From assembly GCF_003334305.1 (NCBI RefSeq), contig NZ_QOWS01000011.1: DNA of 64,000 nt. One strand, given 5' to 3'. This DNA is from Escherichia coli (GTDB lineage: Bacteria; Pseudomonadota; Gammaproteobacteria; Enterobacterales; Enterobacteriaceae). Positions within the stretch are counted from its first letter, which is position 1. Each line of letters opens with the position of its first letter. The translations under genes and the position numbers were made by a program. Below, one piece after another: positions 34,758-41,816 of this stretch. The notes under the pieces are model-generated. The model was not told where the DNA came from, did not search any database, and was given only the letters and a program-made list of their open reading frames with translations.

Positions 34758-34774
34758 TTGGCTCCTCTGACTGG
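34758..34774. repeat. 17-bp att core at the tRNA-Asn 3' end (single copy)
   Basis: ttggctcctctgactgg overlaps the tRNA 3' end; no second copy found by eye between 3300 and 4320. Confidence 0.6.
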
Positions 34775-34834
34775 ACTCGAACCAGTGACATACGGATTAA
34801 CAGTCCGCCGTTCTACCGACTGAACTACAGAGGA
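34759..34834 (-). tRNA. asnT: tRNA-Asn (GUU)
   Basis: 76-nt minus-strand sequence reads TCCTCTGTAGTTCAGTCGGTAGAACGGCGGACTGTTAATCCGTATGTCACTGGTTCGAGTCCAGTCAGAGGAGCCA; the copy next to mtfA is asnT in K-12. Confidence 0.9.
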
Positions 34835-34934: not shown

Positions 34935-35732
34935 TTAATGAACATTCGTCGCCGAAAACGAGTCTGTATCATTAGCGTGATGCAGTCTCTGCAAAGGATC
35001 TTGTTGATAAAATTGGCAGAAACGTTGCCACAATGAAGGGAAACGAGGAGCAAAAAGTTCTGGGGCGCTAAAGAAATATTCAGAAAGTACGGCAAAACAT
35101 TCAGCAGGATCACTGGCAGCATAAGCATCGATGCTCGCCGCATTCTCGCCAACCAATTCGATTTCTTCCTGAATGTTGTTCATTGCAGCATGAAGATCGT
35201 GTTCCCAGCCAGCAACCTCACGCAACGGAATAAAGGGAACTCCGCTGGCGCGATCGCCGTTACGGGTGTCCAGCTTATGAGCGACTTCATGAATAATCAG
35301 GTTAAAACCAGAAGCATCAAAAGAATCTTGTATATCCAACCAGTTCAAAACGATAGGCCCTTGCTGCCAGCTCTGACCTGACTGAACAATACGTTGGTTA
35401 TGCACCAGACCGATATCGTCTTCCCATTCATCATCGACCACAAATGGCGCAGGATAAATTAAGACTTCATGAAAACCATCCAGCCATTCCAGTCCTAACT
35501 CCAGAACGGGCAGGCAAAATAGAAGTGCTATCCGGCAGCTTCTTAATGAATTCAGCTCAAAGCCCTGTAAAGGAACAAGCCGTTTTTGCTGTAAAAAACG
35601 TTCGGCAAGAGTGACTAATTTGCTTTGTTCCTGTTCCGTCAGACACGTTAAAAGGGGGATCGATAGTGCTTCCTGCCAGGGAAGGGCAGTTTGATGTGCT
35701 GATTCTTGTACTTTCCAGGGCCACTTAATCAT
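34935..35732 (-). CDS. mtfA: Mlc titration factor A (zinc-dependent peptidase-like)
   Basis: 265 aa from the internal ATG ([19 protein letters not shown]...) with HEVAH zinc motif; the track ORF extends 13 codons upstream. Confidence 0.9.
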
Positions 35733-35825
35733 CGTTTTGCTCGCAAACTCGTCACTTGAACAAAATTGCACGGACAGGGACTGTTAAAATGCCAAATTTC
35801 CTGGCATCATGGCAACCATCTGAAC

Positions 35826-35915
35826 GGAGAGATGCCGGAGCGGCTGAACGGACCGGTCTCGAAAACCGGAGTAGGGGCAACTCTACCGGGGGTTCAAATC
35901 CCCCTCTCTCCGCCA
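35826..35915 (+). tRNA. serU: tRNA-Ser
   Basis: 90-nt sequence GGAGAGATGCCGGAGCGGCTGAACGGACCGGTCTCGAAAACCGGAGTAGGGGCAACTCTACCGGGGGTTCAAATCCCCCTCTCTCCGCCA with long variable arm. Confidence 0.9.
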
Positions 35916-36461
35916 CTTTATCAATGACTTATCTCCCGACTTCCCGCCTTGCTTTTCCTAAACAGAACAATCGTAGAATATTCTTGAAGGGTTAGATCGT
36001 CACTGTTTTCTGTTCGATACTGTGACATTCAGCACTTGATTCGCTATGGGTCTGACAGGAAGGTTTCGAGCGAAAATCTACAGTTATTCAGTCGTTTTCT
36101 TATCGGTCACCATTATTCTTTTAGACATTGATCCTATGAAACTGCCGCAAAGTTGCTGGCGGGAACTGAAGTTGCGTAGAGAAGGGGTCAATAATTGAGC
36201 CAAAAAAGGAACGCGGCCGTCAGATTAAAGCCGCGGGACAAAGTCCATAATTTCCAAGAGTTGTTGAATTTCCCAGCTTTTTTGAAAGCCTTTGTATCAT
36301 ACTAACAAGTAAAAAAGGTTTAAATACCAAAATTAACCTATATTTCTGGTTAGCTTTACCATGACAGATGACTTGCTCCTGGAGACATTGGCGCAGCCCG
36401 TCTGTATTGGTGAGTTGTGTATTTATTGTTCGCCGTTTTCTCAGTTTTTTTCTACAGACAT

Positions 36462-36496
36462 AATAAAAAAGACACGTCTCAAGCATGAGCGTGTCT
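36462..36496 (-). terminator. zinT terminator hairpin
   Basis: agacacgtctca/tgagcgtgtct stem (one bulge) preceded by aataaaaaa, giving a U-run after the stem on the minus strand; ~90 nt downstream of the zinT stop. Confidence 0.5.
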
Positions 36497-36584
36497 GAGT
36501 TTGTCTTATTTATTTGTCTTGGTAAATTATTGTCGTTACTACCAGGCACTGTTCTGTTAAATAATTGAAGTCAGCGCAAAAAAA

Positions 36585-37235
36585 TCAATGAGACATCATC
36601 TCCTCGACCACTTCTTTGCTACTCAACTGATATGGATAATACGTTGGCCAGTTTTCCATTTCATTCAATAAAGACTGTTGGGTATCATTACCCATAAAAA
36701 TGTGAAAATGAGATGATTTTCGTGGTGCAATTATATGATCGCTAAATTGAATATATTTAGGGGCTTTGCTTTCAGGATCTTTACATTCGAATAAGTAACG
36801 AACGCCTTTCTTGCCTGATTTATAGGTGAGTATTTTGTATCCATCGTAATCATATTTACAGGATGTTGTTTCATTATGTCTATGGAATTCAACAATGCCG
36901 TCCTCAATGCCAATCATCTCGATATCTGTCACATAACCTTTGCGATAATAATCTTTAATTTCAGCAAATGTTTTGGTTTTATCTGCATCCGCTTTCTTCT
37001 GAAAGACGGGGTCAAGTTTGCCACTTTGCAGTAAAGGATAAACGGATTGCCAGACTCCATCCCAGTCACTGAGCGTTCGGTTTTGTACATTGGTATCATC
37101 AAAAACACCATTAGCAGCTTTTTGTTCGACCTCTGTTAAGGGGTTGCCGTGTGAGTGATGACCATGCGAAAAGGCAGGAGCGCTAACAATAAAGACGCCT
37201 AAAGCAACAGCCAGTTTATGAAGACGAATCGCCAA
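36585..37235 (-). CDS. zinT: Periplasmic zinc/cadmium-binding protein
   Basis: 216-aa ORF with signal peptide and His-rich HGHHSHG motif. Confidence 0.9.
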
Positions 37236-37491
37236 AACAGTTTCCTCCAGAGTTAATGTACATGATGTATAATGTTATATTGTAACATATGGCGAAATGC
37301 AATAACTCTTAGGAAACGAGAGCATAGTTTTCTCAGGTGTATTTTCCTATCTTATTGAAATAAAATAAATTATTCTGGTGATGAAAGGTTGATGACAAAC
37401 GAAACATAACTTGATGCGATCTGTGTGGGCCGGATAGGGCGCTCGCGCCGCATCCGGCCGGGATAACGCGTACTTTGTTGGCAATATGAAG

Positions 37492-38127
37492 TTATAGAGA
37501 TAATTTGTTGTGAACCTGCTTGCGTAACTGGTTGAAAAGGGAAAGCAACTTCTTATACCGTAAGGCTAAAAGCAGTACCGCCAGCCCAGCGTAGATGAGT
37601 GGCTGCGGTGAAATAATCTTCACTGACCACAAATAATGTATTGGGGCCAGGATCGCGACAAGATAGACGAAGTTATGCAACTGTTGCCAGTGTTTGCCGA
37701 GTTTTCGCTGCATCGCCTGGGTTGAAGTGAACGCTAACGCAAGCAAAATTACCCAGCTGATAATACCTAACGTTAAATAAGGCCGGGTAATTAACTCCTT
37801 ACCTAATAACGCCAGATTATTCACGCCCAGCTCCAGCAATGCGTAACTGGTTAAATGCAGTGTCGCCCAGGCAAAGCACCATAAGCCTAACAGGCGGCGA
37901 GTGCGTATCAATAACGGCTGTTTTGCGTAGCGTGCCAGAGGTGTGATTAACAAGGTCGCCAGCAAAAATTTCAGTGCAGTGCGACCGGTAAAATGCTGAA
38001 TATCTTTCACCGGATCGGCACCCAGTCCACCGTGATTGATCGCCCAGGCCAGCCAGAGAAACGGCAACAATCCGGCAAGATGCAGGCAAACTTTCAGCCA
38101 TGTCACCTGTTTTGCTGTCAGACGCAT
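37492..38127 (-). CDS. msrQ: Methionine sulfoxide reductase haem-binding membrane subunit
   Basis: 211-aa polytopic ORF immediately downstream of msrP. Confidence 0.9.
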
Positions 38128-40458: not shown

Positions 40459-41816
40459 TGAAAAGATTATCTATAACCGTCCGTTTAACCTTGCTTTTTA
40501 TATTGCTGCTGTCTGTTGCTGGCGCTGGAATTGTCTGGACTCTCTATAATGGCCTGGCAAGTGAGTTGAAATGGCGCGATGATACAACACTCATTAACCG
40601 GACAGCGCAGATCAAGCAGTTGTTAATTGATGGGGTAAATCCAGATACGTTACCTGTATACTTTAACCGGATGATGGATGTTAGCCAGGATATCTTGATC
40701 ATTCATGGTGATGGCATCAATAAAATTGTTAACCGGACAAATGTCAGTGATGACATGTTAAATAACATACCTGCTAGTGAGACAATCAGCGCAGCTGGCA
40801 TTTACAGAAGCATTATTAATGACACTGAGATTGATGCTTTACGAATTAATATTGATGAAGTTTCGCCATCATTAACGGTTACTGTGGCTAAATTGGCTTC
40901 AGCCAGACATAACATGCTTGAACAGTATAAAATCAATAGCATTATAATTTGCATTGTCGCCATTATACTGTGCTCAGTATTAAGTCCGCTGTTAATCCGA
41001 ACGGGGTTACGAGAGATCAAAAAGTTGAGTGGTGTAACGGAAGCGCTGAATTATAACGATAGCCGGGAGCCTGTTGAGGTTAGCGCATTACCGAGAGAAC
41101 TAAAACCTCTTGGGCAGGCGTTGAATAAAATGCATCATGCTTTAGTCAAAGATTTTGAGCGTCTAAGTCAGTTTGCTGACGATCTCGCTCATGAACTTAG
41201 AACGCCAATTAATGCATTACTGGGTCAGAATCAGGTTACGCTCAGTCAAACCAGAAGTATCGCTGAATATCAAAAAACAATTGCCGGTAACATTGAAGAG
41301 CTGGAAAATATTTCGCGGTTAACAGAGAACATACTGTTTCTTGCCAGGGCAGATAAAAACAATGTTTTGGTGAAACTGGACTCGCTTTCTCTCAATAAGG
41401 AAGTCGAAAATTTGTTGGACTATCTTGAATATCTTTCAGACGAGAAAGAGATTTGCTTTAATGTCGAGTGCAATCAGCAAATCTTTGCGGATAAAATTTT
41501 ACTGCAACGAATGTTATCGAATCTTATTGTTAATGCCATTAGATATTCACCAGAAAAATCGCGTATTCATATAACCAGTTTTCTTGATACCAACGGATCT
41601 CTTAATATTGATATCGCCAGCCCTGGAACGAAAATTAATGAGCCTGAAAAACTCTTCCGTAGATTTTGGCGGGGAGATAATTCGCGTCATTCCGTAGGTC
41701 AGGGACTAGGCCTTTCTTTAGTCAAAGCGATTGCCGAATTACATGGGGGAAGTGCTACGTATCACTATCTCAATAAGCATAATGTGTTCCGGATTACGTT
41801 GCCGCAAAGAAATTAA
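40458..41816 (+). CDS. hprS: Two-component sensor histidine kinase
   Basis: 452 aa; H-box LAHELRTP and G-box GQGLGLSLVK; start overlaps the hprR stop. Confidence 0.9.
   Translation: MKRLSITVRLTLLFILLLSVAGAGIVWTLYNGLASELKWRDDTTLINRTAQIKQLLIDGVNPDTLPVYFNRMMDVSQDILIIHGDGINKIVNRTNVSDDMLNNIPASETISAAGIYRSIINDTEIDALRINIDEVSPSLTVTVAKLASARHNMLEQYKINSIIICIVAIILCSVLSPLLIRTGLREIKKLSGVTEALNYNDSREPVEVSALPRELKPLGQALNKMHHALVKDFERLSQFADDLAHELRTPINALLGQNQVTLSQTRSIAEYQKTIAGNIEELENISRLTENILFLARADKNNVLVKLDSLSLNKEVENLLDYLEYLSDEKEICFNVECNQQIFADKILLQRMLSNLIVNAIRYSPEKSRIHITSFLDTNGSLNIDIASPGTKINEPEKLFRRFWRGDNSRHSVGQGLGLSLVKAIAELHGGSATYHYLNKHNVFRITLPQRN

Follow-up and report, generated by a model that had tools for sequence, protein, structure and literature searches.

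The zinT-serU spacer of Escherichia coli as a two-allele locus: a probably ancestral form lacking yodB and a yodB cassette in the same slot

The spacer between zinT and serU in Escherichia coli is a common, old and species-wide two-allele locus, and no peculiarity of one strain or of K-12. In the stretch of DNA analysed here (64,000 nucleotides, hereafter the window), the spacer has the yodB-less allele, which would have kept the original 222-bp 3' flank of zinT. In the other allele, one event would have swapped these 222 bp for a 995-bp cassette containing yodB with its own upstream region. From the sequence comparisons below, we consider it very likely that the arrangement seen in the window is the ancestral one, with the yodB cassette as a derived replacement.

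The yodB-less spacer is an ordinary, already-known gene-content polymorphism in a known hotspot (serU/asnT). Indeed, yodB is an accessory gene with an uncharacterised function, any E. coli pan-genome shows where it is present and where it is absent, and it has served as a clone-specific qPCR marker in ST410 (PMC10786849). However, K-12 should not count as the reference state at this locus, since the yodB-less form is common (42% of complete genomes) and probably ancestral. Two further points are corrective: the alleles differ by the replacement of a segment rather than by an indel, and the spacer is without a hidden gene.

Contents of the zinT-serU slot in the window and in K-12

Over its full 64 kb, the window shows no difference from E. 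coli strain A7 (NZ_CP028767, from orangutan faeces; 100% identity). The features used in this work are the following, msrQ and msrP lying beyond zinT.

34759-34834, minus strand: asnT
34935-35771, minus strand: mtfA
35826-35915, plus strand: serU, tRNA-Ser(CGA), detected by ARAGORN and as an Rfam tRNA (57 bits); the K-12 serU is identical in the alignment
35854-36193: 340-bp stretch (the 3' 62 nt of serU and the next 278 bp), also present in the serU-type lambdoid phages ev099, mEp332 and PhiR70_1
35902-35915: final 14 nt of serU, which serve serU-integrating islands as junction and duplicated repeat; unoccupied in the window
35916-36584: zinT-serU spacer, 669 bp
35916-36362: shared non-coding part of the spacer, 447 bp, in both E. 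coli alleles
36046-36198, plus strand: 50-aa ORF, judged non-coding
36220-36549, minus strand: 109-aa ORF crossing the zinT terminator and the allele junction, judged non-coding
36363-36584: allele-specific segment, 222 bp, the 3' flank of zinT and the slot of the 995-bp yodB cassette in K-12
36464-36496, minus strand: predicted intrinsic terminator of zinT, ∼88 nt downstream of the stop codon: a bulged hairpin (7+4 bp) with a U-run behind it
36585-37235, minus strand: zinT, metal-binding protein ZinT (216-aa ORF, annotated zinT in strain A7)

The first-pass annotation of this DNA had claimed that no yodB-like gene lies between serU and zinT, and this was borne out by TBLASTN, by an ORF check and by the annotation of A7. 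The TBLASTN search with YodB, which had been named as a check, found no homologue in the interval, where just chance matches of 12-14 residues were obtained, and the K-12 protein gave nothing in the whole 64-kb window either (best E-value 0.11, at 41688-41810). The spacer has no ORF of ∼175 aa with four hydrophobic transmembrane helices; its longest ORFs are of 109 and 50 aa, with peak 19-residue hydropathy values of 1.31 and 1.69, respectively, compared with 2.33 for YodB. The PGAP annotation of A7 contains no feature between serU and zinT. The related statement that the spacer holds only short ORFs and the zinT terminator, without any membrane-protein ORF, agrees with the ORF list, the hydropathy values and the RNA fold.

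In K-12 MG1655 (NC_000913), the order is zinT (b1973), yodB (b1974, 531 bp), serU (b1975) and mtfA, in agreement with the first-pass annotation. The two loci are alike in the order and orientation of hprRS, hiuH, msrPQ and zinT, then serU, mtfA and asnT, and the 447 bp beside serU are common to both (96.8% identical), as is the terminator hairpin of zinT. They differ in the slot next to zinT, where the window has 222 bp and K-12 an unrelated 995-bp cassette that includes yodB (encoding a 176-aa cytochrome b561, PF01292), and in that the window carries the High-Pathogenicity Island (HPI) at asnT, which is missing from K-12. The spacer measures 1442 bp in K-12 versus 669 bp in the window.

The alignment of positions 35916-36584 with the K-12 interval, also proposed beforehand, revealed that the yodB slot is filled by 222 non-homologous bp. 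On the serU side, window positions 35824-36362 match K-12 in a 539-bp HSP at 96.8% identity (blastn), the shared 447 bp being K-12 L001:5022-5468; on the other side, the last 126 bp of zinT are 94.4% identical to K-12. Between them lie the 222 bp of the window (36363-36584) or the 995 bp of K-12 that include yodB (L001:4027-5021). These two segments gave no global alignment beyond that of shuffled sequences (z=0.9 and -1.4), and their sole match, found by both blastn and alignment, is a stretch of 28-37 nt that corresponds to the zinT terminator hairpin. The K-12-type allele, with the 995-bp cassette separating the stop codon of zinT from the shared 447 bp, is not present in the window. A clean indel was ruled out by MAFFT and blastn, since two non-homologous segments share one slot; segments that occupy the same slot and cannot be aligned argue for a replacement, not for simple presence or absence.

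The divergence between the window and K-12 amounts to 5-6% in the 130-300 bp that border the replaced block on each side and to 0-2% further out, the drop in identity to 94-95% being confined to the ∼130-300 bp abutting the junctions. At the nucleotide level, the zinT genes of the window and of K-12 share 97.1% identity, compared with 97.3-97.8% for msrP and msrQ. A joint import of zinT and yodB from a distant species is unsupported, since zinT is no more diverged than msrP and msrQ.

The terminator hairpin common to both alleles (36470-36496, minus strand), which is followed by UUUUUU, has a minimum free energy of -20.1 kcal/mol (z -3.7 versus shuffles). A hairpin with a U-run of this kind corresponds to an intrinsic (Rho-independent) terminator, and we regard it as the predicted terminator of zinT. 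Its stem is kept in K-12, where it lies 92 nt from the stop codon (window: 88 nt), and E. albertii has a compensated stem. A rule-based consensus scan missed this terminator, presumably owing to the bulge in the stem.

Frequency of the two alleles and their link with the HPI

Allele counts were obtained from 5,426 complete E. coli genomes. The 447-bp part was present in 5,421 of these genomes, the 222-bp segment in 2,305, with identities of 92.8-100%, and the K-12 cassette in 3,114 (57%), nearly all at ≥98% identity; together, the two forms account for 5,419 genomes. The complete 669-bp spacer was covered to at least 80% in 2,282 genomes. The diversity of the 222-bp form within E. coli indicates that it is old. 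Among the carriers of the yodB form are K-12, ATCC 8739 and O157:H7, and among those of the yodB-less form are CFT073 (phylogroup B2) and an O2:H6 strain. All yodB-type matches listed, which include K-12 derivatives, O157:H7 and others, end at query position 447; this shared junction points to a single founding event for the yodB-type genomes compared. A few genomes show secondary partial deletions of the cassette, such as H90, in which cassette positions 820-995 are kept.

The first-pass annotation had proposed either a lineage-specific deletion or an insertion in K-12. The insertion side comes closer, but both are too simple for a replacement with such a wide spread. In particular, yodB would have been acquired in the K-12-type lineage and not lost here, but the replacement is common to 57% of the genomes and is no K-12-only insertion. 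The term 'lineage-specific' has to be abandoned, neither allele being narrowly so (2,305 versus 3,114 genomes).

In the window, a complete yersiniabactin HPI is located at asnT (∼2311-34597, from the A7 annotation mapped via L089), with the integrase gene, ybtS-X-Q-P-A, irp2, irp1, ybtU-T-E and fyuA. A fragmented inverse-autotransporter (yeeJ-like) pseudogene lies beyond it.

The HPI at asnT is ∼1.6 kb from the allele junction. The HPI integrase stretch was found in ∼2,340 genomes, of which at most 394 have an adjacent yodB, a figure that probably takes in other integrases at asnT. Most HPI carriers thus appear to be yodB-less and most yodB-less genomes to carry the HPI, an association obtained by subtraction of counts rather than from a per-genome table and confounded by phylogeny, as B2 strains have both traits. 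Comparable observations come from ST410, in which the sister clones differ jointly in both markers: clone B5 is fyuA-positive and yodB-negative, and clone B4 is yodB-positive and fyuA-negative (PMC10786849). Moreover, the HPI is transferred together with the yeeI (mtfA) flank, which is replaced by RecA-dependent recombination (PMC2606025). Since the spacer lies just 1-1.8 kb from asnT, the allele would probably travel with the HPI when the island spreads by flank recombination; the association of the HPI with the absence of yodB and the joint change in ST410 suggest that the allele hitch-hikes with the HPI flank.

Such a transfer may also explain the history of this particular strain, its yodB-less allele having been imported with the HPI by homologous recombination of the asnT-mtfA-serU-zinT flank. 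We hold this possibility only tentatively. The short distance between island and junction in the window, the genome counts, the ST410 clones and the RecA-dependent co-transfer of the HPI with mtfA all speak for it. However, vertical descent from a yodB-less phylogroup is equally possible for A7, the association is confounded by population structure, and the mtfA gene of the window is 99.1% identical to that of the HPI-free K-12, with no obvious signal of an imported flank. An import of this kind concerns the history of this strain only and is compatible with a derived yodB cassette at the species level.

Direction of the replacement

To which of the two alleles the ancestral state belongs was assessed with relatives of E. 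coli. An outgroup scan with ZinT, using one genome per species, retained two other Escherichia, E. albertii and Escherichia sp. MOD1-EC7003. A separate ZinT protein search added no outgroup, as clustering at 90% merges the Escherichia species. The polarity is read from one informative outgroup, E. albertii.

In E. albertii NBRC 107761 (L003), the gene order is hiuH-msrP-msrQ-zinT-serU-mtfA, without yodB. The 3' flank of zinT in this species is colinear with the 222 bp of the window, with 145 of 218 positions identical (67%; z=15.4, range 15-17), whereas the K-12 cassette has no similarity to the E. albertii spacer (z=0.7). E. albertii thus shares with the window the absence of yodB, the zinT-serU-mtfA order, the colinear 222-bp flank and the terminator hairpin, in compensated form. 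It differs in the allele segment being only 67% identical, in the length of the spacer (567 bp versus 669 bp in the window) and in the middle of the spacer (window 36046-36312), which has no clear counterpart there; within the 447-bp part, clear conservation is limited to positions 35916-36045 (∼93%).

In Escherichia sp. MOD1-EC7003, yodB is also absent, but the informative segment has been secondarily deleted. At this locus (L002, 6649-6816), everything between the stop codon of zinT and window position 36061 is gone. Outside Escherichia, none of 76 zinT loci has a YodB homologue beside zinT. The colinearity of the 222 bp with the yodB-less E. albertii indicates that the state of the window is most likely the ancestral one.

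The opposite scenario, in which zinT-yodB-serU is ancestral and yodB was deleted in the lineage of the window and in the other yodB-less lineages, seems to us quite improbable. It would fit with yodB being the majority state (3,114 of 5,426 genomes) and with the occurrence of secondary partial deletions of the cassette, as in H90. However, what remains after a deletion should be part of the K-12 sequence, but the 222 bp have no counterpart in the 995-bp cassette, and they are colinear with E. albertii, which likewise lacks yodB. In addition, the yodB-less allele is more diverse (92.8-100%) than the yodB allele (almost all ≥98%), as would be the case for the older of the two.

If the yodB cassette is the derived allele, the strain studied here most likely lost nothing: either yodB was never at the site, or the ancestral allele was regained by recombination. 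A single simple insertion does not account for everything, since the hairpin is conserved at the same offset in both alleles and flanked by DNA that cannot be aligned. Two or more events may have given rise to the K-12 allele, or it may be an import from a diverged relative.

Origin of the cassette, spacer ORFs and the serU end

The cassette would stem from horizontal transfer out of a pool of YodB-like cytochrome b561 cargo genes in enterobacterial prophages. YodB is 99% identical within E. coli and at most 77% identical elsewhere, the next relatives (72-77%) being found in Citrobacter portucalensis, Hafnia paralvei, some Salmonella and metagenomic contigs. Of six contexts of YodB homologues that were examined, four are prophages: P0010 (Citrobacter portucalensis), P0009 (Hafnia paralvei), P0004 and P0035. 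In P0010 and P0004, the gene lies between the lysis genes (holin, lysozyme, spanin) and the HNH and terminase genes, and in P0009 and P0035 it adjoins lysis genes. The gap between lysis and HNH/terminase genes is a classic slot of phage cargo genes. The other two contexts, Salmonella P0028 and Citrobacter P0014, are small chromosomal islets, which counts against a phage origin. The genes most closely related to the missing one are such YodB-like cargo genes in prophages of Citrobacter, Hafnia and E. coli (61-77% amino-acid identity), and none is present in the window. Loci with such cargo genes include L084 (4001-4540), L088 (969-1502), L091 (4001-4540) and L095/L096.

In the prophage copies, homology to K-12 yodB includes the ∼90 bp upstream of the start codon, where the motif AATAACAAATT...TAAGGATTTGTTAAG is conserved, so that the transferable unit seems to be the promoter with the gene. 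In the rest of the K-12 segment, beyond the yodB coding sequence and these ∼90 bp, no phage or prophage homology was detectable, and the cassette junctions showed neither repeats nor recombinase footprints. Both the donor of the cassette and the way in which it was inserted are thus inferred. That yodB is a remnant of a serU-integrated prophage was also considered and rejected: the cassette lies 447 bp past the serU att repeat, and the rest of the segment is without phage homology.

Taken together, a long-lived two-allele locus, with a domesticated phage cargo cassette as the derived allele and with both alleles reshuffled by HPI hitch-hiking, is a speculative but possible picture, in which YodB might be a superoxide oxidase like CybB. 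If the hitch-hiking is true, gain of the HPI would usually mean loss of yodB. No account of yodB together with zinT was found in the literature searched. The recurrent YodB-like cargo of prophages and the strong association of the HPI with one allele are leads on how accessory genes enter core intergenic regions.

The two ORFs of the spacer were compared between strains and alleles. The 50-aa ORF has nine nucleotide differences to K-12, which lead to nine amino-acid changes, and in phage ev099 it is cut short by an early stop codon in frame. In the 109-aa ORF, 14 nucleotide differences to the B2 copy lead to 10 amino-acid changes, and this ORF is broken at 36362/36363 in all yodB-type genomes. 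Neither ORF gave any sign of purifying selection across alleles and strains, as would be required of a small-protein gene; since the differences between strains are almost all non-synonymous, both were judged not to be genes. In the Rfam search (E≤1), only the two tRNAs were above threshold. A candidate hidden RNA, sX4, was rejected, with 25.6 bits for a threshold of 70 and an overlap with a tRNA. The consensus scan gave four promoter-like sites versus 4.3 expected from shuffles, that is, no enrichment.

It is therefore highly improbable that a small protein or small RNA has escaped annotation in the spacer, whether as a functional substitute for yodB or with another role: both ORFs exist, the longer one stays open in a B2 strain, the 447-bp part is found in nearly all E. 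coli and promoter-like hexamers occur on the minus strand, but the changes in the ORFs are mostly non-synonymous (9/9 and 10 from 14), the 109-aa ORF spans the terminator and is broken in 57% of the genomes, PGAP makes no call there among the genomes listed, Rfam returned only tRNAs and sub-threshold noise, and promoter-like sites are no more frequent than expected.

At the other end of the spacer, the serU attachment site is empty in the window. No integrase or insert is present between serU and zinT, and serU runs directly into the spacer. In contrast, CFT073 has an island of ∼22.5 kb (L099, 4348-26840) between a copy of window positions 35902-35915, on the zinT side, and an intact serU. Besides an integrase and a relaxase, this island carries a type IV pilus and tcpC, a TIR-domain gene. 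CFT073 resembles the window in having the yodB-less 222-bp allele contiguous with zinT (97.2% over 1,444 bp) and the HPI at asnT, and it differs in this integrase/tcpC island at the last 14 nt of serU, the site that is empty in the window. In B2 strains, the yodB-less allele adjoins the serU island. The breakpoint at 35902 recurs in the O2:H6 strain PG20180057 (L082, 655-2040) and in MOD1-EC7003 (L002). Past the serU 3' repeat, the latter has non-homologous DNA; no tRNA lies within 5.4 kb, and another island is probably present at its serU.

The 340-bp stretch that begins within serU is found in phages at 96.7-97.1% identity to both the window and K-12 (blastn), at positions 2941-3278 in mEp332 (L097) and 2939-3278 in ev099 (L098). 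It lies in the attP/integrase region, between a tail-fibre assembly gene and AraC, IS and integrase genes. The first 130 bp of the flank contained in it are also present in E. albertii. The simplest reading is that a phage lineage captured host flank DNA. The match of 340 bp between phage and host is far above the usual length of a tRNA att core, and it would permit RecA-mediated integration or excision.

Finally, some observations concern zinT itself, which is AT-rich (G+C 39%). It adjoins msrQ only in Escherichia, as compared with 76 other Enterobacterales loci, and no homologue of msrP, msrQ, hiuH or mtfA was found within 6 kb of zinT in these 76 non-Escherichia loci; the position of zinT may thus be a lineage-specific acquisition of its own. 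The zinT-msrQ intergenic region (window 37236-37491) has a REP-like palindromic element, and an naRNA4/REP match at 37428-37493 stayed below the Rfam threshold (33 bits for a threshold of 59.5). This region is the most diverged stretch relative to K-12, one 150-bp bin being 89.3% identical.
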